Shown: positions 30,160 to 48,218 of the stretch, in pieces
Layout: every line of letters begins with the position of its first letter
Position numbering within the stretch: the stretch's first letter is position 1
From: an uncultured Actinomycetota bacterium
Lineage (GTDB): Bacteria > Actinomycetota > Actinomycetes > JACCUZ01
Length of the DNA: 64,000 bases
Assembly: GCA_963807005.1 (NCBI GenBank)
Contig: CAWDZK010000005.1
Span: 124,806 to 188,805 of the forward strand
Direction of reading: 5' to 3'
Notes under the pieces: model-generated
Database searches by the model: none
Told to the model about the DNA's origin: nothing
Seen by the model: only the letters and a program-made list of their open reading frames with translations
Program-made: the position numbers and the translations under genes

Positions 30160-30765
30160 ATGGCGTTGCGCATCCACGCCACCGCCGAGATAGACGACGG
30201 TGCCACGGTCGGGGACGGCAGCGCCGTGTGGCAGCTGGCGCACGTCCGCGCCGGGGCCGTGCTCGGCCGGAACGTGGTCGTCGGGCGGGGCGCCTACATC
30301 GGCCCGGACGTGTCCGTCGGGGACGGGAGCAAGATCCAGAACCACGCGATGGTCTACGAGCCGGCCCGTCTCGAGGCCGGCGTCTTCGTCGGTCCGGCCG
30401 TCGTCCTGACCAACGACGAGTACCCGCGGGCGGTGAACCCGGACGGCAGCCCGAAGTCTGCCTCCGACTGGGAGCCGGTCGGCGTCACGGTCCGCGAGGG
30501 CGCCTCGATCGGCGCCCGCAGCGTGTGCGTGGCACCGGTGACCATCGGGCGCTGGGCGCTGGTCGGTGCCGGCTCCGTCGTGGTGCACGACGTCCCCGAC
30601 TTCGCCCTCGTCGCCGGGGTCCCGGCCCGGCGACTGCGCTGGGTCGGCCGGGCCGGCGTCCCCCTCGAGGCCGAGGCCGGGTCCGGGACCACCTTCCGCT
30701 GCCCGCGCACCGGCGCGCGGTACGAACAGCTCGACGACAAGACCCTCGTGGAGGTCGACGCATGA
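30160..30765 (+). CDS. Hexapeptide-repeat N-acetyltransferase (WbpD/WlbB-like)
   Basis: Left-handed beta-helix repeats, 'SKIQNH', 'GPAVVLTND.YPR', 'VAGVPARR', C-terminal 'CPRTG'. Confidence 0.88.
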   Translation: MALRIHATAEIDDGATVGDGSAVWQLAHVRAGAVLGRNVVVGRGAYIGPDVSVGDGSKIQNHAMVYEPARLEAGVFVGPAVVLTNDEYPRAVNPDGSPKSASDWEPVGVTVREGASIGARSVCVAPVTIGRWALVGAGSVVVHDVPDFALVAGVPARRLRWVGRAGVPLEAEAGSGTTFRCPRTGARYEQLDDKTLVEVDA

Positions 30766-31847
30766 CCGCGCTCATCCCTGCTGCCCGCCCCCTGATCGGC
30801 GACGAGGAGCGCGAGGCCGTCGACCGTGTCCTGCGCTCCGGCATGGTCGCGCAGGGCCCGGAGGTCGCCGCGTTCGAAGACGAGTTCGCCGCCGTCGTCG
30901 GCGGCCGCCGTTGCGTCGCTGTGAACTCCGGCACCTCAGCCCTCCACCTGGCCTTCCTCGCCGGGGGGATCGGCCCGGGCGACGAGGTGATCGTCCCGTC
31001 GTTCACCTTTGCGGCGACCGCCAACTCGGTGGCGCTCACTGGGGCGACCCCGGTGTTCGCCGACATCGAGCCGGACCACTTCAACCTCGACCCGGACGCC
31101 GTCGCAGCAGCCATCACGCCGCGCACCCGGGCGATCATGCCGGTGCATCTCTATGGCCACCCGGCGGCGATGGACCGGTTCTCCGATCTTGCCGAGCAGC
31201 GGGACCTGCTGCTGTTCGAGGACGCGGCTCAGGCGCACGCCGCCAGCCTGCACGGCCGGCCGGTCGGGTCGTGGAGCCTCGCCGGCTCCTTCTCGTTCTA
31301 CCCGACGAAGAACATGACCTCCGGCGAGGGTGGCATGGTCACCACCGCCAGCGACGAGCTCGCCCGGACGGTGCAGCTGCTGCGCAACCAGGGGATGGAG
31401 AAGCGCTACGAGAACGAGGTCGTCGGCTTCAATGCCCGGATGACCGACCTGCACGCCGCGATCGGCCGGGTCCAGCTGCGCCAGCTCGCCGGCTGGACCA
31501 AGCAGCGCCAGGCCAACGCGGCCTTCCTCGACGAGAACCTCGACGGCGTCGTCGTTCCGCCGGTCGCTGACGGCGCCGTGCACGTCTACCACCAGTACAC
31601 GGTGCGGGTGCCCGGTCACGACAGGGACGCCTTCGCGGCCGAGCTGGCCGCGCGCGGCGTCGGCTCAGGCGTCTACTACCCGATCCCGAACCACCGGTTG
31701 CCCTCCTTCGGGCTGGCCCTCGACCTGCCCGAGACCGAGCGGGCCGCGCGCGAGGTGCTGTCCCTGCCGGTGCACCCGGCCCTCTCGGAGGCCGAGCTCG
31801 AGACCGTCGTCACTGTCGTCAACGCCGTCGCAGGGGCCGGCTCGTGA
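30762..31847 (+). CDS. DegT/DnrJ/EryC1/StrS aminotransferase (WbpE-like)
   Basis: 'VNSGTSAL', 'PVHLYG', 'EDAAQAH', 'SFYPTKNMTSGEGG'. Confidence 0.92.
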   Translation: MTALIPAARPLIGDEEREAVDRVLRSGMVAQGPEVAAFEDEFAAVVGGRRCVAVNSGTSALHLAFLAGGIGPGDEVIVPSFTFAATANSVALTGATPVFADIEPDHFNLDPDAVAAAITPRTRAIMPVHLYGHPAAMDRFSDLAEQRDLLLFEDAAQAHAASLHGRPVGSWSLAGSFSFYPTKNMTSGEGGMVTTASDELARTVQLLRNQGMEKRYENEVVGFNARMTDLHAAIGRVQLRQLAGWTKQRQANAAFLDENLDGVVVPPVADGAVHVYHQYTVRVPGHDRDAFAAELAARGVGSGVYYPIPNHRLPSFGLALDLPETERAAREVLSLPVHPALSEAELETVVTVVNAVAGAGS

Positions 31848-32830
31848 CGTTGCGCGCAGGCCTGCTGGGCCTGGGGATGATGGGGCGCAACCACGCACGG
31901 GTCCTCGCGTCGCTGCCCGGCGTGGACCTGGTCGCCGTCGCCGACGCCGCCGGTGACGTGCACCGCGCCGCCGCTGGGCGGCCGGTCCTCGCCACCGTCG
32001 AGGAGCTCATCTCCCAGGGCATCGACTACTGCATGGTCGCCGTACCTACCTACCTGCACGAGGAGGTCGGCCTGACGCTCGCCGCCGCCGGTGTCCACGC
32101 GCTGGTCGAGAAGCCCCTGACGCCGGACGTGGCCTCCTCGGAGCGGCTCGCGTCGGCGTTCGAGGACGCCGGACTGGTGGGGGCCGTGGGCCATATCGAG
32201 CGCTACAACCCGGCGCTGCAGGAGGCCCGGCGTCGGCTCGCCACGGGTGAGTTGGGCAGCCTGCACCAGATCATCACTCGTCGGCAGGGACCGTTCCCCG
32301 CGCGGATCGCCGACGTCGGCGTGGTCAAGGACCTGGCCACGCACGACATCGACCTGACCGCGTGGGTCACCCAGCAGCAGTTCACGTCGGTCTCGGCGCA
32401 GGTGGCGCACCGCAGCGGGCGCGAGCACGAGGACCTGGTCGCCATCGTCGGCCGGCTCGCGGACGGGACGGTCACCAGCCACCTGGTGAACTGGCTCTCC
32501 CCGTTCAAGGAGCGGATCACCGTCATCACAGGTGACCGCGGCGCCTTCGTCGCCGACACCCTCACCGCCGACCTCACTTTTCACGCCAACGGCACGATCG
32601 CCACCGAGTGGGAGTCGATCGCGAAGTTCCGTGGCGTCAGCGAGGGTGACATGATCCGCTACGCCATCGCCAAGCCGGAACCGCTGCGGTCGGAGCACGA
32701 GGCGTTCCGGGACGCCGTGCTCGGCAAGGAGGCCGACATCGTCACCATGCGACAGGGCCTGGCGACGGTCGCCGTGGCGGAGGCGGCTCTCCGGTCGGCC
32801 CGGACCGGATCCACCCAGAGCATCGGCTGA
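31844..32830 (+). CDS. Gfo/Idh/MocA oxidoreductase (WbpB-like sugar 3-dehydrogenase)
   Basis: 'GLGMMG', 'EKP', 'VGHIERYNPA', 'DVGVVKDLATHDID'. Confidence 0.9.
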   Translation: MTLRAGLLGLGMMGRNHARVLASLPGVDLVAVADAAGDVHRAAAGRPVLATVEELISQGIDYCMVAVPTYLHEEVGLTLAAAGVHALVEKPLTPDVASSERLASAFEDAGLVGAVGHIERYNPALQEARRRLATGELGSLHQIITRRQGPFPARIADVGVVKDLATHDIDLTAWVTQQQFTSVSAQVAHRSGREHEDLVAIVGRLADGTVTSHLVNWLSPFKERITVITGDRGAFVADTLTADLTFHANGTIATEWESIAKFRGVSEGDMIRYAIAKPEPLRSEHEAFRDAVLGKEADIVTMRQGLATVAVAEAALRSARTGSTQSIG

Positions 32831-32831
32831 G

Positions 32832-34349
32832 GTGGACGACCCGCGGCCCGACGAGCCGCCGGAGGAGTTTGTCGACGACGTCGACGTCGTTCCCGGCTCA
32901 CCGAGCGAGCTCGGCCGCGCGGTCTCCCGCGACGTCGCGATCTACACGATCGGCACGGTCGTCGCGAACGGCATCCTTTACCTAGCGGTGCCGATCTACA
33001 CCCGCGTCTTCCCCCCTGTCGAGTACAGCAAGTTCGCCTTCGTGACGACGGTGAGCGGGATGCTTGCAGGCGTGCTCGTCCTCGGCGGCGACACGGCGCT
33101 GGCCCGGTTCTGGTTCAAGGACCCGGCACTGGCTGCGCGCCGCACGTTGTGCCTTACCTGGATCGGCTTCCTCGCAGCTTGGGCCGCGGTGTTCTGCCTC
33201 GCTCTGGCCCCCTTCACACCGGCTGTGGCTTCGTGGACGCTCGACCAGCGCAACGCCGCCTCGCTGTACCTGCTCGCACTCGCCACCCTCCCGATCGCGC
33301 AGACCAGCCGCATGCTCGCCCAGATTCTTCGCAACGAGTTCCGCCCCGTGCCGTTCGTTCTGACCGGTGTGGTCCTCGGCGCCGGCAGCCTAGGAGGAGG
33401 GCTGCTCTTCGCAGTGGGCCTGGACCTCGGGGTCGCGGGGATCTTCGTCGGCATCCTGTGTGCCGAGACCCTGGTACTGGGCCTGCGCACCGCCCTGACC
33501 TTCGACCTGTTCCGTGGGTCGTTCGACCGGGATCTGCTGCGAGGGCTGCTGCGCTTCGGCGTTCCTCTCGTGCCGGTCACGGTCAGCTTCTGGGTCTTCA
33601 CGGCCGCCGATCGGGTCGTGGTCGGAAAGGTCGCCGGGCTCGAACAGCTGGGGTACTACAGCGTGGCCGTGACGGTCACGATGGTCTTCGTCGTACTGAC
33701 GAGTGCGGTATCGCAGGCATGGCTGCCTCGCGCCATGCAGCTCTACGAGGCCGACCGCGAGAGAGCGGCCACGGTCATCGGCGCGTCGCTGACGTACTAC
33801 GTGTTCGTCCTGGGGGTGCTGGCCAGCGGCATCGCCGCTCTGGCGCCAGAGGTCACGGCAGTGCTCGCCGGACCCGAGTACGCGCCCGCCGCCGCGGCGA
33901 TCCCGCTGCTCTGCCTCGGCTCGGTCGCGTACGGTTCGCAGACGATCACTGCCAGCGGGATGACCATGACCCACCGGACCGGTCGGCTTGCCTCCATCTC
34001 CCTCGGCGCAGCGGCCGTCAACGTCGCCGCCGCACTGCTCCTGGTGCCTCCGTTCGGGATCGTCGGTGCGGCCGGAGCCAGCCTGGCCGGCTACGGCCTC
34101 CTGACCACGGGGTACCTCTGGGCCTCTCAGCGGTTCTGGGCGATCCACCTGCAGCCGCGCCGGCTAGCCGTCACCGTTGCACTGCTCGCCCTGGTCGGCC
34201 TGGTCACGACCACCCAGCGCGACCAGCCAGTGGGGCTACGGCTGCTCGTGCCGATCGCGTTCGTCGCGGGCTGGGTGCTCCTGGCCGGGGTGCACGCCGA
34301 CGAGCGGGACGCTCTACGCGCTGGGGCCCGGCTCCTCCGGCGCCGCTGA
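32832..34349 (+). CDS. wzx: Wzx-type polysaccharide flippase
   Basis: About 12 TM segments, 'VPIYTRVFPPVEYS', 'LRFGVPL', 'DRVVVG', 'LGYYSVA'. Confidence 0.85.
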   Translation: MDDPRPDEPPEEFVDDVDVVPGSPSELGRAVSRDVAIYTIGTVVANGILYLAVPIYTRVFPPVEYSKFAFVTTVSGMLAGVLVLGGDTALARFWFKDPALAARRTLCLTWIGFLAAWAAVFCLALAPFTPAVASWTLDQRNAASLYLLALATLPIAQTSRMLAQILRNEFRPVPFVLTGVVLGAGSLGGGLLFAVGLDLGVAGIFVGILCAETLVLGLRTALTFDLFRGSFDRDLLRGLLRFGVPLVPVTVSFWVFTAADRVVVGKVAGLEQLGYYSVAVTVTMVFVVLTSAVSQAWLPRAMQLYEADRERAATVIGASLTYYVFVLGVLASGIAALAPEVTAVLAGPEYAPAAAAIPLLCLGSVAYGSQTITASGMTMTHRTGRLASISLGAAAVNVAAALLLVPPFGIVGAAGASLAGYGLLTTGYLWASQRFWAIHLQPRRLAVTVALLALVGLVTTTQRDQPVGLRLLVPIAFVAGWVLLAGVHADERDALRAGARLLRRR

Positions 34350-34781
34350 ACTCTCGTCGGCCAGCCGGCGCGCGGCCCCGGGGAGGACCCGGGCCGGCAC
34401 CCCGGCGAGCACGCTCCATGGCGGAGCCTGAGTGCCCTGGGTGACCACGGCGCCGGCGGCAACCACCGAGTGGGATCCGATCCTGCAGCCCATGAGCACG
34501 ATCGCGCCGGCGCCGACATGGACGTGGTCGCCCAGAACCGTGGGGGCCTGATCGATGTCCGCCTGACCCTGGGCTAGGGCCCTCCGGACGGTGGAGTGGG
34601 TGTAGATCTGTGCTCCGGCGGAGATGTCGCAACCTGCTCCGATGGTGAGCCCGCCGCTGCCGTCGATAACCGTGAACGCACCGATCCAGCAGCCCGCCCC
34701 GACGTCGGGTTCGCCGACGACCCAGGCGTGCGGATTCCACCGATTGACCGGCAGGTGGTGCCACTCAGGCGGCTGCGTCAT
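34314..34781 (-). CDS. Hexapeptide-repeat acyltransferase
   Basis: 'DVGAGCWIGAFTVIDGSGGLTIGAGCDISAGAQIYTH', 'AGVPARV'. Overlaps the wzx 3' end by 36 nt. Confidence 0.82.
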   Translation of the reverse strand: MTQPPEWHHLPVNRWNPHAWVVGEPDVGAGCWIGAFTVIDGSGGLTIGAGCDISAGAQIYTHSTVRRALAQGQADIDQAPTVLGDHVHVGAGAIVLMGCRIGSHSVVAAGAVVTQGTQAPPWSVLAGVPARVLPGAARRLADESSAAPEEPGPSA

Positions 34782-34923
34782 GCCCGAGCGCCTGCCTCTC
34801 CGACGGTCGACCGCCCTGCAGCGGCACCGGTCCGGCACCGGCGCACCTGTAGTATCCCATCGATCGGGAGCCCGGGGTCGGCGCCCGGAAATCTTGCTCT
34901 CTCTGGTTCGGGACGGATCCTCT

Positions 34924-35892
34924 ATGCACTCGGTGGCAGGGCGCTCGCTGCTCATCACGGGCGGTGCCGGTTTCATCGGCAGCCACCTCGTGGACCGGCT
35001 CCTGCGCGACGATCCAGCCCGCGTGGTCGTCGTCGACAACTTCTTCCTTGGCCACGAGAAGAACCTCGCCGACGCCCGAGCATCCCGACCGGACCTCGAG
35101 GTGGTGCGGCTCGACGCCGCTGATCTCGCCGCGATGCAGGATGTCGTCACGACCCACGAGGTCGACGTGGTCTTCGACCTGGCGGTCGTGCCGCTGCCGA
35201 CCTCGCTGACCTACCCGGCGTGGACGGTACAGACGAACGTCGGCATCGCGACCACCTTCTGCGAGATCGCCCGGCGGGGGCTGATCGACCGGCTCATCCA
35301 CTGCTCGTCGTCCGAGGCCTACGGCACTGCGCGGTACGTCCCAATGGACGAGGGGCACCCGCACGACGCCATCACCCCGTACGCGGCCAGCAAGTCGGCC
35401 GCGGACCACATCATCGAGTCGTACGTGCAGACCTTTGGCATCGACGCGACGATAGTGCGGCCGTTCAACAACTTCGGGCCCCGGCAGAACCCCGGCTCGT
35501 ACGCCGGGATCATCCCGATCGTCGCGCAGCGGGTTGCCGCTGGGCAACCTATCGAGATCCACGGGGACGGTCAGCAGACCCGGGACTTCATCTACGCCCC
35601 TGAGACGGCCGACATGATCGTGCGCGTCTTCGAGAGCGAGGCCTGCCGAGGCCGCGTCCTGAACGTCGCGTCCGGCATCGAGACCTCCGTCAACGACCTG
35701 GTCCGCCGACTGCTGCGCGTCCTGGGTGCCGATGAACACCCGGTCGTGCACACGGATGAGCGCCCCGGCGACGTGCGCCGGCACTGCGCGGACATCTCGC
35801 TGGCGCGCAAGCTGCTCGAGTACGAGCCGCGCGAGATCTCGGACCACGATCTCGCCGAGACCGTCCAGTGGTACGCGGAGATGCAGCGATGA
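34924..35892 (+). CDS. NAD-dependent nucleotide-sugar epimerase/dehydratase
   Basis: 'TGGAGFIGSHL', 'SSSEAYG', 'YAASK', 'RPFNNFGP', 'GDGQQTRDF'. Confidence 0.92.
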   Translation: MHSVAGRSLLITGGAGFIGSHLVDRLLRDDPARVVVVDNFFLGHEKNLADARASRPDLEVVRLDAADLAAMQDVVTTHEVDVVFDLAVVPLPTSLTYPAWTVQTNVGIATTFCEIARRGLIDRLIHCSSSEAYGTARYVPMDEGHPHDAITPYAASKSAADHIIESYVQTFGIDATIVRPFNNFGPRQNPGSYAGIIPIVAQRVAAGQPIEIHGDGQQTRDFIYAPETADMIVRVFESEACRGRVLNVASGIETSVNDLVRRLLRVLGADEHPVVHTDERPGDVRRHCADISLARKLLEYEPREISDHDLAETVQWYAEMQR

Positions 35893-36995
35893 GGCTCAAC
35901 CTTCCGCTTACCGGCCAGGAGGAGCTCGACGAGGTCGCAGCCGTCCTCGAGACCGGTTACCTCACCCAGGGCCCGAAGGCGGCGCAGTTCGAGTCGCTCG
36001 TGGCGGCCTACACAGGTGTCCGGCACGCGTTCGCGACCAGCTCGTGCACCACCGCCCTTCATCTCGCCGTCGTCGGGCTCGGTGTCGGTCCCGGTGACGA
36101 GGTCGTCGTCCCCGACTTCACGTTCCCGGCCACGGCGAACGTCGTCGTCCAGCAGGGTGCAACGCCGGTCGTCGTCGACATCGACCCGGACACGTTCGGC
36201 ATGGATCCGGCGGCGCTCGCCGCCGCCATCACGCCTCGCACCAAGGCCGTCATCGTCGTGCACGCATTCGGGCTGTGCGCTGACATGGACGGCATCAATG
36301 CAGTCGCCGATGCGGCCGGGGTACCGGTTGTCGAGGACGCCGCGTGCGCCCTCGGCGGCACCTACCACGGTCGTGCGGCTGGTTCGCTGTCGGCGGTCGG
36401 CGCCTTCTCGTTCCACCCGCGGAAGATCATCACCACCGGCGAGGGCGGGATGGTCATGACGGACGACGACGAGCTGGCCGAGCGGTTCGCAGTGCTGAGG
36501 ACCCACGGGGGCGTCCGTCGGGAGCTGTACCTCGAGTTCGAGGAGGCCGGTTTCAACTACCGCCTGAGCGACGTCAATGCCGCGATCGGAGTCGCCCAGA
36601 TGGCTCGGCTGTCCGAGCTGGTTCGGCGGCGGCGCGAACTCGCTGGACGCTTGACCGAGATGCTGCAGGGCTCGCCGGGGCTCCGGACGCCGTCCGAGCC
36701 CGAGGGCGTCGAGCACACCTACCAGTCCTACGTGGTGATGCTCGACGACGCGATCGACCGCGACGCGGTCATCCGTGGCACGCGTGACCGGGACGTGGAG
36801 ACCACGCTGGGCACCTACTCGCTCAGCGCCCAGCCGTACTTCCAGCGCACCCTTGACCTGCGCGAGGGCACCTGCAAGAACGGCAGCCGCGCCTTCCGCC
36901 AGTCGCTCACCCTCCCGCTCTACCCTCAGTTGACCGACGCGGACCTCGAGCAGGTCGTCGAGGCCGTCGGCAGGGCTGTCGCGGCAGTGTCCTGA
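35889..36995 (+). CDS. Second DegT/DnrJ/EryC1/StrS aminotransferase
   Basis: 'SSCTTALH', 'EDAACA', 'SFHPRKIITTGEGG', 'GFNYRLSD'. ATGA overlap with the epimerase gene. Confidence 0.92.
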   Translation: MRLNLPLTGQEELDEVAAVLETGYLTQGPKAAQFESLVAAYTGVRHAFATSSCTTALHLAVVGLGVGPGDEVVVPDFTFPATANVVVQQGATPVVVDIDPDTFGMDPAALAAAITPRTKAVIVVHAFGLCADMDGINAVADAAGVPVVEDAACALGGTYHGRAAGSLSAVGAFSFHPRKIITTGEGGMVMTDDDELAERFAVLRTHGGVRRELYLEFEEAGFNYRLSDVNAAIGVAQMARLSELVRRRRELAGRLTEMLQGSPGLRTPSEPEGVEHTYQSYVVMLDDAIDRDAVIRGTRDRDVETTLGTYSLSAQPYFQRTLDLREGTCKNGSRAFRQSLTLPLYPQLTDADLEQVVEAVGRAVAAVS

Positions 36996-37008
36996 TCCGA
37001 GGAGACCG

Positions 37009-37638
37009 ATGAGCAGCACGCCAGAGGTCGTGGTCGTGGACTACGGCATGGGCAACGTCGGGTCGATCCGCAACATGCTGTCGCGGCTCGGCGCCGTCGG
37101 CGTCGTCACCGGCGATCCTGATGTCGTTGCCCGCGCCGACCGGGTGATCCTGCCCGGCGTCGGCGCGTTCGACGAGGCGATGTCCACCCTTCGCGCGGCT
37201 GGCCTCGACGAAGCGCTGCTCCAGCGCTCGGCAGCAGGCGACGCGCCGTTGCTCGGTGTCTGCCTCGGGATGCAGCTGCTGCTGGAGGGAAGCGAGGAGG
37301 GCGACGAGAAGGGTCTCGGACTCGTCCCGGGCACCTGCCGACGGCTCCCGGACAGCGTCGACGGGCTGGCGCTGCGCGTTCCCCACATGGGGTGGAGCAC
37401 GGTGGAGCCGGTCCGCACGTCGCCGCACGTCCCGTCACTCGGCCTCGACGCCCGCTACTACTTCGTGCACTCCTACCACGCCGACCCGGCCGTCGACGAG
37501 GACGTGCTCGGCCGTTCGACCTACGGCGTCACGTTCACGTCCGCCGTCGCGCGCGACAACGTGGTCGGCGTCCAGTTCCACCCCGAGAAGAGCCACCGGC
37601 ACGGCCTGCGCCTGCTCGCCGACTTCGTCGGGGTCTGA
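37009..37638 (+). CDS. hisH: HisH-type glutamine amidotransferase (glycan-associated, WbuY/HisH2-like), copy 1
   Basis: 'VVDYGMGN', 'ILPGVG', catalytic 'GVCLGMQ', 'PHMGW', 'YFVHSY', 'QFHPEKS'. Confidence 0.9.
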   Translation: MSSTPEVVVVDYGMGNVGSIRNMLSRLGAVGVVTGDPDVVARADRVILPGVGAFDEAMSTLRAAGLDEALLQRSAAGDAPLLGVCLGMQLLLEGSEEGDEKGLGLVPGTCRRLPDSVDGLALRVPHMGWSTVEPVRTSPHVPSLGLDARYYFVHSYHADPAVDEDVLGRSTYGVTFTSAVARDNVVGVQFHPEKSHRHGLRLLADFVGV

Positions 37639-37646
37639 GAGGCACC

Positions 37647-39614
37647 GTGAACGTCTACCCCCGGATCATCCCTGCCCTGCTGCTTGACAACGGTCGTCTG
37701 GTCAAGACCCGTCAGTTCCAGGACTCCGTGTACGTCGGCGACCCGGTCAACGTGCTGAGCATCTTCAACGACTTCGAGGTCGACGAGATCGCGCTGCTCG
37801 ACATCGGGGGTGCTCGTTCGCGGACACCGACTGCGGTCTCACTGCTGCACCGGCTCTCGACCGAGTGCTTCGTGCCGCTTTCGTACGGGGGCGGGATCCA
37901 GACCGCCGAGCAGGCGCGCGAGATCATCACCTGCGGCTTCGAGAAGGTCGTGCTGAACTCCTTGCTACTCGAGGACCCTGCCGAGGTCGGTCGCATCGTC
38001 ACCACGCTGGGTTCGCAGGCGGTCGTCGGCGCCCTCGACGTCCGTCGGGACGGCGACACCCTGCGGGTCTTCGGCCGGGGCGGCGCCAGCGGCGCCGAGC
38101 TGACCGTCGAGGAGTGGGCAGAGCGCGCGCGTGCGGTCGGGGTCGGGGAGGTCCTGGTCACCTCGATCGATCGCGAGGGCACGCGTGAGGGCCTCGACCT
38201 CGAGCTGGTCAAGCTGGTCACCTCGCTGGTCAACGTCCCCGTCGTGGCCCACGGCGGGGCCGGAACCCGCGCCGACCTGGTCGCCCCGGTTCGGGACGCG
38301 GGAGCGTCTGCGGTCGCCGCCGGCAGCCAGTTCGTGTTCCAGGGCGGTCGAGAGAGCGTGCTCGTCAACTATCCGTCGCGCGCCGAGATCGGTCTCATGT
38401 TCCGCGACGTCACGCACCTGTCCGGTGGCGACGGCCATACCAGGGTCGCCGGCCCGGTGCACCTCGCCGGGCTCGACATCGTCCTCGACGAGTCCCGCAC
38501 CTGTCAGCGATGCCTGATCACCACCGACGTCCCCAACGCCACGCTGGACGAGCGCGGCATCTGCTATTACTGCCGCCTGCATGACGCGATGGAGCGGCAG
38601 TACCCCATCGGCGAACAGGGCCGGCGACAGCTCGACGCGCTCGCCGCGAAGTTCAAGGAGGCCGGACGCGGCAAGAAGTACGACTGCATCCTGGGGGTCA
38701 GCGGCGGCTGCGACTCGTCCTACCTCGTCCATCTGCTGGTCGAGCTCGGCGTCCGCCCGCTAGCGGTGCACTTCGACAACACCTGGAACTCGCCGACCGC
38801 GACGTCGAACATCTACACGGTCCTGGAGCAGCTCGGCGTCGACCTCGAGACCTACGTCGTCGACAACACCGAGTACGACGACATCTACCGGTCGTTCATG
38901 CTCGCTGGCGTCAAGGACGTCGAGGCACCGACGGACATCGGCTTCATGGGCGTGCTGTACCGGTCTGCCGAGAAGCACGGCATCAAGCACATCGTCGAAG
39001 GCCACTCGTTCCGCACCGAGGGTGTGTCGCCCTTGGGCTGGCTCTACATGGACGGCGGGTACATCAAGGGCGTGCACGAGCGCTACGGCAGCGTCCCCAT
39101 GCGGACCTACCCGAACATGGAGTTCGGGCAGTTCGTGCGCTGGGCGGCCCTGAGCCGGATCGAGCGGCACCGCCCCTTGTACTTCCTGGACTACCAGAAG
39201 GAAGAGGTGAAGCGCTTCCTCGCGGAGACCTACGGCTGGCAGTGGTACGGCGGCCACCACCTCGAGAATCGGTTCACGGCCTTCTACCACACGTACCTCC
39301 TGCCGACCCGGTTCGGCATCGACTTCCGGCAGATCGAGCTCTCCGCATTGGTCCGCTCCGGCCAGCTCGAGCGCGGTGAGGCCGCTGCCCGCCTCGCGGA
39401 GCGGCGGATCCCGGACCCTGAACAGCTCGCCATGGTGAAGAAGCGGCTGCGCTTCTCCGACGCCGAGTTCGACGAAGTCATGACCATGCCGGCCCGGACC
39501 TACCGCGACTTCCCCACCTACAAGCAGCGGTTCGAACGGCTTCGTCCGTTCTTCTGGCTCATGTACAAGGCAGGGCGCGTGCCGAAGAGCTTCTACGTCA
39601 AGTTCTGCACGTGA
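37647..39614 (+). CDS. Fusion: HisF2/WbuZ-like barrel plus N-acetyl-sugar amidotransferase (WbuX/WbpG/PseA-like)
   Basis: N-half 'RIIPALLL', 'PLSYGGGI', 'SIDREGT..GLD', 'VLVNYPS'. In-frame ~30-aa linker with no stop. C-half 'CQRC...CYYC', PP-loop 'SGGCDSS', 'HHLENRFT'. Confidence 0.88.
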   Translation: MNVYPRIIPALLLDNGRLVKTRQFQDSVYVGDPVNVLSIFNDFEVDEIALLDIGGARSRTPTAVSLLHRLSTECFVPLSYGGGIQTAEQAREIITCGFEKVVLNSLLLEDPAEVGRIVTTLGSQAVVGALDVRRDGDTLRVFGRGGASGAELTVEEWAERARAVGVGEVLVTSIDREGTREGLDLELVKLVTSLVNVPVVAHGGAGTRADLVAPVRDAGASAVAAGSQFVFQGGRESVLVNYPSRAEIGLMFRDVTHLSGGDGHTRVAGPVHLAGLDIVLDESRTCQRCLITTDVPNATLDERGICYYCRLHDAMERQYPIGEQGRRQLDALAAKFKEAGRGKKYDCILGVSGGCDSSYLVHLLVELGVRPLAVHFDNTWNSPTATSNIYTVLEQLGVDLETYVVDNTEYDDIYRSFMLAGVKDVEAPTDIGFMGVLYRSAEKHGIKHIVEGHSFRTEGVSPLGWLYMDGGYIKGVHERYGSVPMRTYPNMEFGQFVRWAALSRIERHRPLYFLDYQKEEVKRFLAETYGWQWYGGHHLENRFTAFYHTYLLPTRFGIDFRQIELSALVRSGQLERGEAAARLAERRIPDPEQLAMVKKRLRFSDAEFDEVMTMPARTYRDFPTYKQRFERLRPFFWLMYKAGRVPKSFYVKFCT

Positions 39615-40942
39615 GGCGAGCCCGTCCGGTACGGCGGGTGCTCGTCCTTCCCCAGGAGATCGCAGGCGTCGCGTCCGGGCTGGTGCGCGGCATCCGCGCG
39701 TCCGGCCTCGAGGCCGACCTGCTCGTGCGCGGGCGCCATCCCTTCGGCTACCCGCGGCCTGCGCCGGGTACGCCGGTACTTGGGCGTCTGCAGTCGTTGT
39801 TGACCCGGCTCTCCGGTGCCCGTGGGCCGGTTCGACCGATGGCTCTGGCCATGTCGCTCGTCCTGCGGGTCGCATTGCTGCCCTGGCTGCTGAGGCGCTA
39901 CGACGCGCTGGTCTACCTCGGGCCGACCACGCTGACCGGGCTGGCTGGCGAACGGCGGCTGGCCAAGCGACTCGGCCTTGTCGTCGTCACGGTGTTCCTC
40001 GGCAGCGACGCGAGGCCGCCGTACCTCAGCGGCTACGTGATCCGGCCGGGGCAGGGCGAGCCGGACCTTGCCGACATCCGGCGTCAGGTGCGCGCCACCG
40101 TGCGCCGGGTCCGGGCGGCCGAGACCGGCTCCACCTGGGTGGTCAACCACCCACCGACCGCAGGGTTCCTTCGCCGTCTTTACGTCGACTTCTCCACCAT
40201 GGGCCTGCCGGCTCCGGAGACCGGTGCTCCGCGCACCACCGGTGCTGACGCGGCCGTGGGGCCATTCGACCGCACCGTACGCGTGGTGCACGCACCGTCG
40301 ATGGCGCCGTGGAAGGGCACTGACCAGATCCGAGCGGCCGTCAACCGCCTGCGCGACGAGGGTCTGCGGATCGACTACGTCGAGCTGGTGGGAGTCCCCC
40401 ACGACCAGGTGGTGGCGACGCTTGCCGGTGCCGACCTCGTCGTCGACGAGCTCTACTCCGACGCGATCCTGGCCGGCCTCGCGACCGAGGCGGCCGCGCT
40501 GGGGGCCACCCCGCTGGTCTTCGGCTACGCCGGTGCAGCCCTCGCGAGCACCGCCGAGTCGCTCGGGGTCGGGTTGCGCCACTACCACCCACCGGAGCAG
40601 CTGCTCGACATCCTTCGTGACTTCGTCAGCGACGCTGACCTACGCATCTCGACCGGCTCCGCCGTGCACGACTTCGTGGTCCGCGAATGGTCCGCCGCTG
40701 CGGTAGGAGCCCGGTACGCCCGGCTGCTGACCGAGGGGCCGGACCCTTCCTGGCTGCGCGACCCGGCCGCAGCCGACTATGTGGACGGGTGGGGCGTCGA
40801 ACGGGAGGAGCGACGGACATTTCTGCGGCGGTTCCTCGCCGCCGGCGACCCAGCAGATCTCGGACTGCCCGACGGCAGCGCGCTGCGTGAGGCCCTGCTC
40901 CTCGAGGCCGGCGACGGCCTCCGTCGTGGCTCACCCCGATAG
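39611..40942 (+). CDS. GT-B fold glycosyltransferase-like protein
   Basis: 'VVHAPS...KGT..I', 'ADLVVDELYSD', 'EAAALG'. GTGA-coupled to the fusion gene. Confidence 0.7.
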   Translation: MRRARPVRRVLVLPQEIAGVASGLVRGIRASGLEADLLVRGRHPFGYPRPAPGTPVLGRLQSLLTRLSGARGPVRPMALAMSLVLRVALLPWLLRRYDALVYLGPTTLTGLAGERRLAKRLGLVVVTVFLGSDARPPYLSGYVIRPGQGEPDLADIRRQVRATVRRVRAAETGSTWVVNHPPTAGFLRRLYVDFSTMGLPAPETGAPRTTGADAAVGPFDRTVRVVHAPSMAPWKGTDQIRAAVNRLRDEGLRIDYVELVGVPHDQVVATLAGADLVVDELYSDAILAGLATEAAALGATPLVFGYAGAALASTAESLGVGLRHYHPPEQLLDILRDFVSDADLRISTGSAVHDFVVREWSAAAVGARYARLLTEGPDPSWLRDPAAADYVDGWGVEREERRTFLRRFLAAGDPADLGLPDGSALREALLLEAGDGLRRGSPR

Positions 40943-42097
40943 GGTCTGCTCCCACAACCGCCACAGCACTGCGCTCTCGTTCTCCCAGCACAGCTCGAGT
41001 CGAGCCCTCGCAGCAGCGGCTCGCATCGCGCGCAGGTCCGTTCCGTCGAGCTCGCGCAGTGTCGTGGCCAGCGCAGCCGGGGTGGCCGGGGCATAGCCGA
41101 CTCCCGCTCCATAGCCCTCGATCAGCCGAGACGCCTCCGACGGGGCGGTCGCCACCACCGCAAGTCCTGCCATGAGGTACTCGAAGAGCTTGTTCGGCAG
41201 GCTGATGCGCTTCTGGGGAAGGTCCAGGCCCCAGGGGATCACCCCGAGGTCCGCGGCAGCCGCCGACGGGATCACCTCGGACCAGGTGACGGGCGGAGAC
41301 AGCTCGACCCGGTCGCCGACACCGAGATCGTCGACCTGCTGTCTCAGCGACCGAAGGTAGCCGGGCGAGCCCCCGCCGCGGAGCTCGAGGCGGATGTGGT
41401 CCGGCCACAGCGGGACGCTCTCGACCAGCCCGTGCACATTGCGGTCCGGGCGCAGATGGCCGTGGAACAACGCCGTCCACCTGTCGCCCGGGACATGTTC
41501 AGGCAGCTCCACCAGCAAGGGAGTCGAGCGGACCACGGTCGGCCGGCTGCTCAGGCTGTACGAACGAGCGAGCAGGTCGGCCAGACCGTCGCTGACGGTG
41601 GTGACCCAGGCGGCGTCATGGACGAAGTAGCCCTCGACCGCCCGTACCGCCGGCGGGGCGACGAGCTGCCACACCGCGCTGTCCGCGTGCTGGCCGGCGT
41701 AGAACTCGCGGCAGTCATAGGCGTAGCGGGCCGAGTGTCGCCGGGCGGCGGCAGCGACCATGGGCAGGGCGGCATAGTCGTGCGTGACGTATACGTCGGC
41801 CTCGACGTCGGAGAGGGCAACGGCGATCGCCCGGTGCCGGGCGGCCATCTGGTGCGTGCGCCGGGCCAGCCGCGGCGACACCCGGGCAGTGGCCAGTCGG
41901 CCGACCTCGGCTGCCTTGCCGGCGACCGTGAACGTCGGCGCGGGGACCGCTACATAGCGCCATGGGTGCTCTGCGCCTCCGGCGCCGCTGTACCCGACCA
42001 CGGTGACGTCCACCCCGTGCGAGGCGAGCAGGTCGGCCTGCCGACGCGGCCGCGGGTCGGTCGGCACATGGCTGAGGGCGACGACGCAAACCTTCAG
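40931..42097 (-). CDS. GT4-like glycosyltransferase, probable CTG start
   Basis: '(L)KVCVVALSH..DPR..RQA', 'YDCREFY', 'NKLFEYLMAGLAVV'. AGGAGG 5 nt before a CTG that overlaps the upstream TGA. Confidence 0.82.
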   Translation of the reverse strand: MKVCVVALSHVPTDPRPRRQADLLASHGVDVTVVGYSGAGGAEHPWRYVAVPAPTFTVAGKAAEVGRLATARVSPRLARRTHQMAARHRAIAVALSDVEADVYVTHDYAALPMVAAAARRHSARYAYDCREFYAGQHADSAVWQLVAPPAVRAVEGYFVHDAAWVTTVSDGLADLLARSYSLSSRPTVVRSTPLLVELPEHVPGDRWTALFHGHLRPDRNVHGLVESVPLWPDHIRLELRGGGSPGYLRSLRQQVDDLGVGDRVELSPPVTWSEVIPSAAAADLGVIPWGLDLPQKRISLPNKLFEYLMAGLAVVATAPSEASRLIEGYGAGVGYAPATPAALATTLRELDGTDLRAMRAAAARARLELCWENESAVLWRLWEQTLSG

Positions 42098-43209
42098 GAC
42101 GCCCTCCTGCCTCGGACGAGCCGGGCAGCGCGGGTCATCCAGGTGTAGTCGTTGGGATACGTCGCGAAGGGCACGTGCGGTAGGGCCACCAGCTCGGCCA
42201 GCTCCTCGAGGGAGATACCGAGCTTGCGGGCGACGAATGCCGTTTCGATCCGTTCTCTGCGGGCGTCCAGCGGCGGGCGACGCAGCTCCTCCAGTGCCTC
42301 CTCCCGGGTGACCTGCCCGGCAACGATCTGGCTGGACAGATGTGCGCGACGCTTGTCGAAGCCGTACCGGCGGGGCAGGTACACGCCTTGGAAGTACTTC
42401 GTCCAGCGCGACTCCTCGTGCTTGCCGCCGTAGTCGCGCCAGCCGTACGTCTCGATCAGCAGCTCTCGGGCAGCTGCCTTGTCGTAGGGAACCCAGTTGA
42501 GCGGGGTCACCTTGCGCATCCGCTCGGCCAGCAGGTGCCGCCCGTAGTAGCCGGGGTAGCGCAGCACCGGGAACTCGTCCAGCGGTCGCTGCCCGAAACG
42601 CGCGTGGATCGCCCGCACCTGACGACCGTCCATGGCGTTGCCGGTCCAGGACGCAGGGAGGATGCTCTCGGTCGCGAAGTTCCAGCCGCTGAGCACGTAC
42701 CGGATGCGGTTCTCGCGGGCTGTCCGGTACAGGGCGGCGAAGAACGCGTGGTCCTGCGGGGTGTCCTGGTTCAGCACGCCGGAGCGCAGGTAGGCCACCT
42801 GCACGTCCTGCACCTCGGGCCACGGTACGACGATCGTCACCAGGTCGACGTCCAGCGCCGTCGTCATCCGGTAGATGTTGCTTGTCGCCTCGTTGCTGTT
42901 CCAACCGGCGTCGACGTGCACCACGAGCGGTCGCAAACCGGCCGAGGCGGCGACGTGCAAGAGGTAGGAGCTGTCGACACCGCCGCTCATGCCGAGGATG
43001 CAGTCGTAGGGCCGACCCGCACCGTACGCGCGAAGTCGGGCTGCGGTCTCGGCGAGCCGGCCCTCGCCCTCCGGGCCGCACAGCCAGGTCCCCGGCATCT
43101 CGGCGATGGCCCGAGTGCAGTGCTGGCAGCGGCCCTCGCCGTCGAAGGTGATCTCCGGGTCCGTCGTGTCGATCACGCACCGGGTGCAGATCCGGTAGTC
43201 GTTGCTCAC
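42094..43209 (-). CDS. N-acetyl-sugar amidotransferase (WbuX/WbpG-like), copy 2
   Basis: 'CTRC...CQHC', PP-loop 'SGGVDSS', 'DAGWNS', 'PQDHAFFA', 'YGGKHEES'. Confidence 0.92.
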   Translation of the reverse strand: MSNDYRICTRCVIDTTDPEITFDGEGRCQHCTRAIAEMPGTWLCGPEGEGRLAETAARLRAYGAGRPYDCILGMSGGVDSSYLLHVAASAGLRPLVVHVDAGWNSNEATSNIYRMTTALDVDLVTIVVPWPEVQDVQVAYLRSGVLNQDTPQDHAFFAALYRTARENRIRYVLSGWNFATESILPASWTGNAMDGRQVRAIHARFGQRPLDEFPVLRYPGYYGRHLLAERMRKVTPLNWVPYDKAAARELLIETYGWRDYGGKHEESRWTKYFQGVYLPRRYGFDKRRAHLSSQIVAGQVTREEALEELRRPPLDARRERIETAFVARKLGISLEELAELVALPHVPFATYPNDYTWMTRAARLVRGRRAS

Positions 43210-43940
43210 GGCAGCACCGCCTCGAGCTCCTCGTCGTCGGGATAGCTCACGAGAACCGCGCGCCGGCGGCCGTGGAACACGAAGATGCTGCCCGCGGCCA
43301 CCGCACTGGCCCCGGCCACCTGCGCCGCGGTGAGGTCGGCCAGTGCGCCGGCGCCGCCGAGCGCCACGACGGGCACCGGACAGCTGGCCGAGACCAGCGT
43401 CACCGACGCGGTGTCGTAGCCGCGCATGGACCCGTCCCGGTCGACGCTCTGCAGCAGCACCTCGCCGGCACCGGCATCGACCGCCCGGGCAACGGCGTCG
43501 ACCAGGGTGGCCCGTTCCGGGCCGACCGTTCTGGCGTCGGATCCGGAGCCGGTGTAGTCGATGCAGGCACAGACGGCCTGCGAGCCGTACTCCGAAGCCA
43601 CCCGCGTGACGAGGCGCGGGCTGTCGGTGAGTGCCTGACGAAGCACCACCTTTTCCATGCCGAGGTCGAAGATCGCCGCGCAGTCGTCTGGGGTCCGGAG
43701 CCCACCGCCGTACGACACCGGCATGAAGCACTCGGACGCCAGCTCGGCCAGGAAGCCGAGGTCTGGCCGGGCCGAGCCTGGGTCGATGGACAGGATCGCC
43801 AGCTCATCAGCACCCTTCTCGCTGAAGAGCCGCACGGTGTTCAGTGGATCACCGACATACGTGGGATCCCGGAACGCCGTCGTCTTGACCAGGTCTCGAC
43901 CGCGGAGCAGGAGCGCCGGGATCACGCGGGTGCGCCTCAC
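43206..43940 (-). CDS. HisF2/WbuZ-like barrel protein, copy 2
   Basis: 'RVIPALLL' (HisF catalytic Asp absent), 'GDPLNTV', 'SYGGG', 'SVDRDGSMRGYD', 'VLVSYP'. Confidence 0.9.
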   Translation of the reverse strand: MRRTRVIPALLLRGRDLVKTTAFRDPTYVGDPLNTVRLFSEKGADELAILSIDPGSARPDLGFLAELASECFMPVSYGGGLRTPDDCAAIFDLGMEKVVLRQALTDSPRLVTRVASEYGSQAVCACIDYTGSGSDARTVGPERATLVDAVARAVDAGAGEVLLQSVDRDGSMRGYDTASVTLVSASCPVPVVALGGAGALADLTAAQVAGASAVAAGSIFVFHGRRRAVLVSYPDDEELEAVLP

Positions 43941-44566
43941 GCGGGCAGCTCGAGGAAGTCGGCAAGCAGTGCCATGCCGAAGCGGTGGCTCTTCTCCGGG
44001 TGGAACTGGACGCCGTAGACGTTTCCCGATGTCACCGCCGCGGTGAACCGCTCACCGCCGTACTCGCCGTGCGCGACAGCGGACGAGGCGTCCGCCGTCA
44101 TCGCGAAACTGTGTGCAAAGTAGTAGCGGCTGCGCTGGTCGGCATCATGGCTGGCCAGGATCGGCGACCCCGCCGCCGTCTGGATGTTCGCCCAGCCCAC
44201 GTGCGGGACCTTGTGGGTCGGAGCCGGTCGCAAGCGCCGCACCTCGGCGTCCACCCAACCGAGGCCGGGTAGATCGCCTTCCTCGCTGCCTCGCCCGAGC
44301 AGCTGGTGGCCCACGCAGACGCCGAGGAACGGCACGTGCCGCTCATGCGCGGCCGTGGTCAGTGCCGGGACGAGGTCGAGCTCGTCGAGGCGGCGTCGGC
44401 AGTGGTCGAAGTGCCCGACTCCGGGCAGGATCACCTTGGTGGCGGAGGCCACCTCGGCGCTGTCGGCCGTCCGCAGGGCCGTGTATCCGAGGTACTCGAT
44501 CATGGTGACCATCGAGGCCGGGTTGCCGGCGCCGTAGTCGACGACGACGACGTCGGGACGGGACAC
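43937..44566 (-). CDS. hisH: HisH-type glutamine amidotransferase, copy 2
   Basis: 'VVDYGAGN', 'ILPGVG', 'GVCVGHQ', 'PHVGW', 'YFAHS', 'QFHPEKS'. Confidence 0.9.
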   Translation of the reverse strand: MSRPDVVVVDYGAGNPASMVTMIEYLGYTALRTADSAEVASATKVILPGVGHFDHCRRRLDELDLVPALTTAAHERHVPFLGVCVGHQLLGRGSEEGDLPGLGWVDAEVRRLRPAPTHKVPHVGWANIQTAAGSPILASHDADQRSRYYFAHSFAMTADASSAVAHGEYGGERFTAAVTSGNVYGVQFHPEKSHRFGMALLADFLELPA

Positions 44567-46928: not shown

Positions 46929-48218
46929 GTGAAGATCGCCGTCGTCGCCCTCGGGAAGATCGGCCTCCCACTCGCGGTGCACTTCGCAGCGGGCGGCCAC
47001 GACGTGGTCGGCGCCGACGCGAACTCCGCCGTGGTCGACCTGGTCAACGAGGGCCAGGAGCCGTTCCCGGGAGAGCACGGGCTGCAGGAGGCGCTGACCG
47101 CGGCCGTCGGTGAAGGTCGTCTCCGCGCGACCACCGACACCGCTGCTGCGGTCAGTGAGTCCGAGGCGGTCGTTGTCGTGGTGCCTCTGGTCGTCGACGC
47201 GGAGGGCCAGCCCGACTTCACGCTGATGGACTCGGCCACCCGGGACATCTCCCGTGGGCTGCAGCGAGGCACGCTGGTGTCGTACGAGACGACGTTGCCG
47301 GTCGGCACGACGCGCGACCGGCTCGCGCCCACTCTCGCCGAGGGGTCGGGGCTCGAGCCCGGCCGCGACTTCCACCTCGTCTTCAGCCCCGAGCGGGTGC
47401 TGACCGGCCGGGTTTTCGCCGACCTACGCCGCTATCCGAAGCTCGTCGGCGGCGTCGACGACGAGAGCGGTAAGCGTGGCGTGACGTTCTACGAGACGGT
47501 GCTCGACTTCGACGACCGGTCGGACCTGTCGCGGCCCAACGGCGTCTGGGACCTTGGCACCGCGGAGGCGGCCGAGCTGGCGAAGCTCGCGGAAACCACC
47601 TTTCGCGACGTGAACATCGGGCTCGCCAACCAGTTCGCCCGTTTCGCCGAGAAGGCCGGCGTCGACGTCTACCAGGTGATCGAGGCCTGCAACTCGCAGC
47701 CGTACAGCCACATCCACCCACCGGGTGTGGCCGTCGGCGGGCACTGCATCCCGGTGTACCCGCGCCTGTACTTGTGCAACGATCCCGAGGCCACCATCGT
47801 GCAGGCCGCCCGTGAGGCCAACGCCGCGATGCCGGAGCACGCGGTCGACCTGCTCGCAGACGCCTACGGAGATCTCGCCGGCGCTCGGGTCGTCGTGCTC
47901 GGAGCCACCTACCGCGGCGCCGTCAAGGAGACCGCGTTCTCGGGCGTCTTCCCGCTGGTGACGGACCTGCGCGACCGGGGAGCCGTACCGGTCGTGCACG
48001 ACCCGATGCTTTCCGACGAGGAGCTAGCGGCTCTCGGCCTGGACGCCTACCACCTCGGCGACTCGGTGGACGCGGCGATCCTGCACACCGACCACGCGGA
48101 CTACCGGACTCTCTCGGCCCACGAGCTGCCCGGCGTGCGCGTGCTTGTCGACGGCCGGCGGGTGACCGACCCAGCGCGGTGGACCGGGGTTCACCGACGG
48201 GTCATCGGTCAGGCCTGA
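46929..48218 (+). CDS. Nucleotide-sugar 6-dehydrogenase (WbpA/WecC-like)
   Basis: 'LGKIGLP', 'FSPERV', 'KLAETTFRDVNIG', catalytic 'GGHCIP'. Confidence 0.92.
   Translation: MKIAVVALGKIGLPLAVHFAAGGHDVVGADANSAVVDLVNEGQEPFPGEHGLQEALTAAVGEGRLRATTDTAAAVSESEAVVVVVPLVVDAEGQPDFTLMDSATRDISRGLQRGTLVSYETTLPVGTTRDRLAPTLAEGSGLEPGRDFHLVFSPERVLTGRVFADLRRYPKLVGGVDDESGKRGVTFYETVLDFDDRSDLSRPNGVWDLGTAEAAELAKLAETTFRDVNIGLANQFARFAEKAGVDVYQVIEACNSQPYSHIHPPGVAVGGHCIPVYPRLYLCNDPEATIVQAAREANAAMPEHAVDLLADAYGDLAGARVVVLGATYRGAVKETAFSGVFPLVTDLRDRGAVPVVHDPMLSDEELAALGLDAYHLGDSVDAAILHTDHADYRTLSAHELPGVRVLVDGRRVTDPARWTGVHRRVIGQA

Follow-up and report, generated by a model that had tools for sequence, protein, structure and literature searches.

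Acetamidino sugars, which are constituents of O-antigens, of flagellin glycans and of archaeal N-glycans, give positive charge to surface glycans. The closest described systems, WbuXYZ in E. coli O145, WbpG-HisH2-HisF2 in P. aeruginosa O5 and AglXYZ in Methanococcus maripaludis, are encoded in surface-glycan gene clusters and consist of three separate proteins: an amidotransferase, a HisH-type glutaminase and a HisF-like barrel. Arguments on where the amidotransferase obtains its ammonia have come mainly from gene neighbourhood and lately from one predicted and pulled-down contact, the HisF2-WbpG interface, which was predicted from coevolution, supported by pull-down in 2024 and given explicitly in support of the earlier ammonia-delivery proposal (PMC11445079). 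Here we analysed a 64,000-nucleotide stretch of DNA from an uncultured Actinomycetota bacterium (assembly GCA_963807005.1, contig CAWDZK010000005.1, positions 124,806 to 188,805), hereafter the window, in whose numbering all positions of its features are given. It carries the same three protein families, likewise within a surface-glycan gene cluster, whereas barrel and amidotransferase form one polypeptide with a linker of about 36 amino acids (aa). Our analysis confirmed that 37647-39614, the hisF2::wbuX fusion gene, is a real single gene joining a HisF-like barrel of the ammonia-conducting type to an amidotransferase of the acetamidino-forming type.

The fusion gene is a single uninterrupted frame of 655 codons on the forward strand, running from a GTG at 37647, preceded by a Shine-Dalgarno-like GAGAGG, to a TGA at 39612-39614 in both the list of open reading frames (ORFs) and the sequence, and it starts 8 bases past the stop codon of hisH (37009-37638). 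Its full-length orthologues are 61-81% identical. From the N-terminus, the protein comprises a HisF2/WbuZ/AglZ-type (beta-alpha)8 barrel at residues 5-247 (37659-38387; NCBIfam AglZ/HisF2 model NF038364, E 1.2e-82), an interdomain linker at residues 248-283 (38388-38495), a WbuX/WbpG/PseA-type N-acetyl sugar amidotransferase (NASAT) at residues 284-612 (38496-39482; NCBIfam TIGR03573, E 4.7e-68, 230.1 bits with the cut-off at 203.2, spanning positions 2-343 of the 344 in the model) and a conserved C-terminal amidotransferase tail at residues 613-655 (39483-39611). Pfam reports only His_biosynth on the fusion, because it holds no model for WbuX. Frame and NCBIfam domains thus agree with the initial annotation, made from the letters of the window, which had described one 655-codon ORF leading from a HisF2-like barrel through a linker into a complete amidotransferase without a stop codon; the motifs it referred to are located at residues 237-243 (VLVNYPS), 286 (CQRC), 306 (CYYC) and 352 (SGGCDS). 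The 209-aa HisH encoded directly upstream on the same strand scores well above the TIGR01855 cut-off (E 7e-65, 218.5 against 105.4 bits) and has a complete Cys-His-Glu triad (Cys85, His191, Glu193) with the motifs GVCLGMQ and HPEKS. TIGR01855 does not discriminate between the histidine-pathway HisH and WbuY/HisH2; gene context places this subunit in the WbuY/HisH2 group.

A long ORF of this kind could also be an assembly or sequencing artefact, in which a lost stop codon or an indel merged separate hisF2 and wbuX genes. Two points speak for such an origin: no public contig of at least 95% identity spans the junction at 38395-38480, the matches to the region being low-depth contigs from four soil-metagenome runs, none of which covers this interval and none of which disagrees with the window, and metagenome-assembled genomes contain both states as well as some errors. 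Regarding these errors, the WbuX part of one actinobacterial fusion (locus L019, 5593-9162 and 7013-7984) is apparently frameshifted, and in L010 and L015 (Acidimicrobiia, Microthrixaceae), the closest of the split relatives, the hisF2 and wbuX ORFs overlap in different frames; these cases may be assembly errors, pseudogenes or true fissions. Against an artefact stands the GC content at codon positions 1, 2 and 3, which amounts to 0.75/0.42/0.92 in the linker, 0.74/0.45/0.89 in the HisF2 part and 0.61/0.41/0.93 in the WbuX part; the third-position value is equally high in one frame across the linker, and therefore there is no frame change at the junction. Decisive, moreover, is the comparative evidence, as the same full-length architecture is present in independent assemblies, among them genomes from isolates (Agromyces bauzanensis, Microbacterium spp. 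and Demequina sp.). The closest orthologue (P0002) is 81% and the next ones (P0005 and P0006) are 72-74% identical, all of them with the same 44-residue spacer between Pro243 and Cys286, both invariant, and a similar linker sequence. Together, this effectively refutes an artefact as the origin of the long ORF.

Full-length fusions recur, the point on which the initial annotation had made its proposal depend. Searching 5.8 billion proteins, we found at least 120 clusters at 90% identity, with 638-671 residues, 97-100% query coverage and 61-81% identity to the window protein, and an exhaustive search of 50%-identity representatives yielded at least nine that carry both domains at 34-64% identity. 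Among the 80 best-matching loci from species-representative genomes, three were true fusions (L001, L002 and L019), all of them actinobacterial, while the great majority contained separate, abutting hisH, hisF2 and wbuX in the same order as in the fusion, and a minority had the order wbuX-hisH-hisF2, as in P. aeruginosa. At 17 loci (L004-L009, L011, L023, L029, L030, L035, L040, L042, L046, L047, L060 and L079), hisF2 and wbuX lie in the same frame with one stop codon between them; in these 17 genomes one point mutation, or read-through of the stop, would yield a hisF2::wbuX fusion. The order within the fusions is always HisF2 followed by WbuX, and hisH is located directly upstream in nine out of nine fused loci examined (the window, L001, L002, L019 and L082-L086).

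To count the origins of this architecture, neighbour-joining trees were calculated for each domain, and changes between the fused and the split state were scored by parsimony and bootstrapped. The minimum number of changes was six in the WbuX tree (bootstrap range 4-7) and seven in the HisF2 tree (5-9). The window protein falls into a large actinobacterial fusion clade, and the nearest relatives of the fusions P0121/P0270, P0125, P0127 and P0288 are split genes of other phyla, not the actinobacterial fusions. From these trees we conclude that about five independent fusion events took place, in actinobacteria, in the lineage of genome CP047947.1 and in several metagenomic lineages, presumably each time in an operon hisH-hisF2-wbuX in which the boundary separating hisF2 from wbuX was lost. 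Repeated fusion in the same order, with hisH upstream, is good Rosetta-stone evidence for physical contact between HisF2 and WbuX. In this respect, the claim of the initial annotation that the fusion supports a direct ammonia channel between both proteins holds in part: a recurrent, independent and order-constant fusion does support contact, but a fusion indicates association and not a continuous tunnel.

Other junctions and partners were observed as well. In a Limisphaerales genome (L045, 5299-6744), HisH and HisF2 are encoded in one ORF, like eukaryotic HIS7, and wbuX is separate, so that the other junction of the trio can fuse too. Fusion partners of WbuX domains furthermore include GT4 glycosyltransferases, located at either end, a membrane domain of the lysyl-phosphatidylglycerol-synthase type and, in one protein of 996 aa, an AsnB-type glutamine amidotransferase/asparagine synthase (fusions to other partners comprise P0139, P0153, P0155, P0169, P0174, P0176, P0178, P0185 and P0191).

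Investigating the residues of the barrel by alignment with T. maritima HisF (1gpw), we observed that the ammonia-gate residues R5, E46, K99 and E167, which sit at the HisH-facing mouth of HisF, correspond to R6, E47, K100 and E168 of the fusion, and that Asp130 corresponds to D131, whereas the position of the catalytic Asp11 is occupied by Leu12. The same pattern extends through 217 HisF2 sequences (141 fused and 76 split): the gate is kept in nearly all of them and the Asp130 equivalent in 217 out of 217, and the Asp11 position is Leu in 204 (about 94%), with Gln, Met, Thr or alignment gaps in the remainder and Asp in none. If HisF2 is defined operationally by these family sequences, as a barrel without Asp11 but with the gate retained, the fused barrel is a HisF2, and its surroundings agree with this assignment, with hisH 8 bases upstream, WbuX fused downstream and sugar-modifying enzymes, a flippase and glycosyltransferases around it. 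In Foldseek comparisons, the N-terminal domain of the model superposes on HisF structures with a template-modelling (TM) score of 0.86. Additionally, HisF2 barrels of both the fused and the split kind conserve the two phosphate-binding glycine motifs (G80-G82, and G202-G203 with G/S224-225) and the residues Lys19, Asp130 and G177, and K20, T21 and F24 of the Lys19 loop are invariant in 47 aligned fusions. Loss of Asp11 together with a kept gate and a kept Asp130 would fit an ammonia conduit, not a cyclase.

The identity of a histidine-pathway cyclase was considered for the barrel and ruled out, as the hisF model TIGR00735 gives 160 bits against a cut-off of 295, and Asp11 is changed to Leu. 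Many database entries for the fusion are nevertheless misnamed as histidine-pathway HisF. Fusions of about 650 aa appear in the JGI data as 'imidazoleglycerol phosphate synthase cyclase subunit', despite the Leu at the Asp11 position and although an amidotransferase makes up two thirds of the protein; the names used by NCBI are 'HisA/HisF-related TIM barrel protein' or 'N-acetyl sugar amidotransferase'. Because the hisF score lies below the cut-off and Asp11 is Leu, the JGI name of a cyclase subunit should not be accepted for these fusions.

The amidotransferase domain carries the zinc motif of four cysteines, C286-QR-C289 and G304-I-C306-YY-C309 (38502-38573), of which C286 is invariant and C289, C306 and C309 are each at least 90% conserved in the 47 aligned fusions. 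Its PP-loop, SGGCDS, lies at residues 352-357 (38700-38717), with S352, G353, G354, D356 and S357 invariant in the same alignment. The C-terminal tail has a mean column conservation of 0.73 and contains R644, P646, F649 and C654 among its near-invariant residues, and the predicted local distance difference test (pLDDT) reaches 87-95 across it. Profile score, the motif CxxC-Xn-[GN]xCxxC, which was defined as a zinc-binding tetracysteine motif with the structure 8WEX (PMC10607449), and SGGxDS all agree with the WbuX family, and by family membership the fused domain is accordingly classed as a putative acetamidino-forming NASAT. A sequence search of PDB with residues 255-655 gave structure 8WEX as its single hit (E 3.9e-9). 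The 50 top hits of a Foldseek search of PDB with the whole model were HisF-like barrels, 8WEX not being among them, and the link to 8WEX therefore comes from sequence.

The linker between the domain-model boundaries is about 36 aa long, slightly longer than the approximately 30 aa of the initial annotation, which was correct about the GC-rich third codon positions. It is the least conserved part of the protein, with a mean column conservation of 0.32 compared to 0.57-0.88 in the domains, and the distance from Pro243 to Cys286 varies between 26 and 46 aa across the fusions. In split systems, the HisF2 tail past the conserved Pro measures about 10-13 aa and the WbuX N-terminus before the first Cys 2-22 aa, and the two tails would roughly account for the linker of the fusion. 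An AlphaFold2 model calculated with 47 fusion sequences had a mean pLDDT of 90.1 and a predicted TM score (pTM) of 0.87. Residues 245-251 form a short helix in this model, and only residues 262-276 (15 aa; 38430-38474), predicted to be disordered, fall below a pLDDT of 50. For a chain of two domains, a pTM of 0.87 implies that barrel and amidotransferase are predicted to be packed in a confidently fixed arrangement. On purely geometric grounds, the C-terminus of a (beta-alpha)8 barrel should lie close to the N-terminal face, the docking site of HisH in HisF, and a chain that has to reach the opposite mouth of the barrel would agree with the linker length of 26 or more residues. The barrel face that touches WbuX and the existence of an ammonia tunnel are both inferred.

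Taken together, we consider it probable that the fusion is a natural single-chain form of two of the three proteins of an acetamidino system, which relays ammonia from HisH through the barrel to WbuX. HisH (37009-37638), docked to the HisF2 barrel at its N-terminal face, would hydrolyse glutamine, and the ammonia would cross the barrel, a conduit without the cyclase Asp11, to reach the PP-loop site of the tethered WbuX domain. There, the N-acetyl carbonyl of the sugar would be activated by ATP, with release of pyrophosphate (PPi), and AMP would be displaced by ammonia to give the acetamidine; the breakdown of ATP into AMP and PPi and the role of the PP-loop follow the proposal of the 8WEX structure paper (PMC10607449). 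Fusion would fix conduit and synthetase at a 1:1 ratio and keep them permanently close. As comparative evidence, it independently supports the contact between both proteins and is no proof of channelling.

Fusion might, however, secure nothing but co-expression, a 1:1 ratio or folding stability, with WbuX taking free ammonia from the cytoplasm and no channelling taking place. WbuY and WbuZ are reportedly dispensable for WbuX activity when ammonium is plentiful. Moreover, many WbuX genes have no hisH or hisF2 nearby (e.g., L013, L021, L024, L052, L058 and L063), and therefore the amidotransferase can presumably use free ammonia and coupling is optional, and fusions of WbuX to unrelated partners such as GT4 enzymes and the membrane domain indicate that fusion alone implies no tunnel. 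We nevertheless regard this explanation as unlikely, given that essentially all systems, fused or split, conserve the four gate residues as well as the HisH partner, that hisH was kept directly upstream at all nine fused loci, that the same N-to-C order arose repeatedly and that the model predicts fixed packing of the domains.

Besides the WbuX genes lacking these neighbours and the missing contig across the junction, two further observations weigh against a relay through the fused barrel. The HisF2 domain scores under the equivalog cut-offs of its own family (277 against 310 bits for NF038364 and 236 against 300 bits for TIGR03572), although these two models are still by far its best matches; the unfused paralogue in the window is also below the NF038364 cut-off (259 against 310 bits), and high-GC actinobacterial HisF2 members seem to fall under it as a group. 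In addition, a passive pipe would not obviously need the conserved glycine motifs, Lys19 and Asp130. These motifs, the Lys19 loop and G177, conserved in fused and split HisF2 alike, would be expected if the barrel bound a phosphorylated ligand, either a nucleotide sugar or a nucleotide, and performed a chemical step or switched on HisH allosterically, in the way that PRFAR binding does in imidazole glycerol phosphate synthase. Such a role appears very unlikely to us, as Asp11 is replaced by Leu in most and kept in none of the 217 sequences and the glycine motifs may be structural, this reading being drawn from sequence conservation.

A more speculative extension of the ammonia relay, which we put forward only tentatively, is that the HisF2 barrel acts as an allosteric relay, sensing the occupancy of WbuX by substrate or ATP, or binding a phosphorylated ligand, and thereby activating HisH; we raise it because of the repeated, order-invariant fusion and the kept phosphate motifs, Lys19 loop and Asp130. 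If this were true, the system would be an amidotransferase of three modules in which a disabled TIM-barrel enzyme is kept as tunnel and switch, and the single-chain form would be the simplest system for showing this double role.

The genomic context of the fusion hints at the substrate. Upstream of hisH are located a hexapeptide-repeat sugar N-acetyltransferase on the reverse strand (34314-34781), whose homologues of 62-67% identity occupy the same position beside the fusions in L001, L002 and L019, and, on the forward strand, an NDP-sugar 4,6-dehydratase-like enzyme of the short-chain dehydrogenase/reductase (SDR) type (34924-35892), with dTDP-glucose 4,6-dehydratase and LegB as best NCBIfam matches, both below cut-off, and a DegT/PseC-type sugar aminotransferase (35889-36995; PF01041, E 2e-115). 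Acetyltransferase, SDR, aminotransferase, hisH and fusion form a five-gene module that is conserved in the three actinobacterial loci L001, L002 and L019, and therefore the substrate is likely an N-acetylated amino-deoxy sugar made locally by the adjacent dehydratase-like SDR, aminotransferase and acetyltransferase. Downstream, the GTG start of a gene for a 443-aa GT-B-fold glycosyltransferase-like protein (39611-40942, forward strand) overlaps the stop codon of the fusion. This protein has no Pfam match, and its model (pLDDT 92) shows a fold like MshA, BshA and PimA. Homologues (e.g., L084, 5443-6741) immediately follow wbuX, or a fusion of independent origin, at no fewer than 14 loci from several phyla, including an archaeon. 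It is likely a partner in the same operon, to which the acetamidino product is probably handed over.

The initial annotation had overlooked a complete unfused paralogous set, hisH'-hisF2'-wbuX', at 42094-44566 on the reverse strand, 2.5 kb downstream of the fusion, so that both architectures are present in one cluster. It comprises a stand-alone wbuX' (42094-43209; 371 aa, sharing 37% identity with the WbuX domain of the fusion; TIGR03573, 239 bits), a stand-alone hisF2' (43206-43925; 239 aa, 45% identical to the fused barrel; NF038364, E 4e-77), likewise with Leu at the Asp11 position, and a second hisH' (43937-44566; 209 aa, 46% identical to the first; TIGR01855, E 1e-55). That each amidotransferase has its own glutaminase and barrel argues for cognate pairing. 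Elsewhere in the cluster, three genes at 30160-32830 (WbpD/WbpE/WbpB-like), for an acetyltransferase of the hexapeptide type, an aminotransferase of the DegT type and an oxidoreductase resembling UDP-GlcNAc 3-dehydrogenase, and an NDP-sugar 6-dehydrogenase at 46929-48218 (WbpA-like) resemble the WbpD/WbpE/WbpB/WbpA route to 2,3-diacetamido-2,3-dideoxyhexuronic acid, the kind of sugar that is amidated by WbpG in P. aeruginosa. The GC content is 0.685-0.70 over the core of the glycan cluster (32000-44000) compared to 0.72-0.77 in the flanks, a drop typical of horizontally exchanged polysaccharide loci. As a whole, with a GC content of roughly 72%, the window resembles actinobacterial DNA from a soil metagenome. 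Scans of the window for tRNAs and Rfam families found nothing.

Regarding novelty, the fusion is already known in the sense that it is abundant in databases, that at least one GenBank record names it and that the implied interaction is published. The fusion P0127 (QNI90831.1, from the 2.33 Mb genome CP047947.1) was deposited as 'histidine biosynthesis protein fused to N-acetyl sugar amidotransferase domain', and with the HisF2-WbpG contact published in 2024 (PMC11445079) the fusion is not the new clue that it had first been taken for; a crystal structure of the family exists as well, 8WEX (PMC10607449). In the literature searched, we found no paper describing a HisF2::WbuX fusion, a search on AglX, AglY and AglZ returned nothing, and neither HisF2 nor the HisF2::WbuX fusion appears in the papers on AGeNNT and on histidine gene fusions. 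New, in a modest way, are the number of times that the fusion arose independently, the constancy of its order and of the hisH beside it, the replacement of Asp11 by Leu throughout the family with the gate kept, the presence of fused and split sets in one cluster and the recurrent GT-B neighbour. Current views are not overturned by the fusion; it contributes comparative support, a barrel welded to a synthetase about five separate times, in constant order and with HisH always adjoining. One chain plus HisH is furthermore a convenient construct for structural and kinetic work on the relay, and the fused and unfused sets side by side in one genome provide a natural comparison.

Compared with the known acetamidino systems, the ammonia relay outlined here is the same as that proposed for the WbpG-HisH2-HisF2 type (PMC11445079), and the gene order is glutaminase, barrel, amidotransferase in the window but amidotransferase, glutaminase, barrel in P. 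aeruginosa and E. coli. The fusions in databases (QNI90831.1 and those of 650-663 aa from Agromyces, Microbacterium and Demequina) share architecture, upstream hisH and similar linker length with the window protein, which is 61-81% identical to the fusions of its own clade and 36% identical to QNI90831.1, the product of a separate fusion event. LpNASAT from Legionella pneumophila (8WEX) has the Cys4 zinc motif, the SGGxDS PP-loop and a Rossmann-like core in common with the fused amidotransferase (PMC10607449); it differs in standing alone, as a protein of 468 residues, and in an additional disordered insert that is absent from the other members of the family, and sequence similarity between both is limited to two short stretches. 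Imidazole glycerol phosphate synthase, as HisH-HisF or as eukaryotic HIS7, likewise pairs a HisH glutaminase with a (beta-alpha)8 barrel, and HisF shares the gate residues and Asp130 with the window barrel but not the Leu at position 11; in HIS7 it is the N-terminus of the barrel that is fused, to HisH, whereas in the window the C-terminus is fused to a PP-loop enzyme. In GMP synthetase and glutamine-dependent NAD synthetase, ammonia from a glutaminase tunnels to an ATP pyrophosphatase site at which a carbonyl or carboxyl oxygen is adenylylated. The WbuX system would share this logic from glutaminase to PP-loop, with the difference that in both synthetases the glutaminase is joined directly to the synthetase, whereas in the window a disabled TIM barrel is placed between them as a third module.

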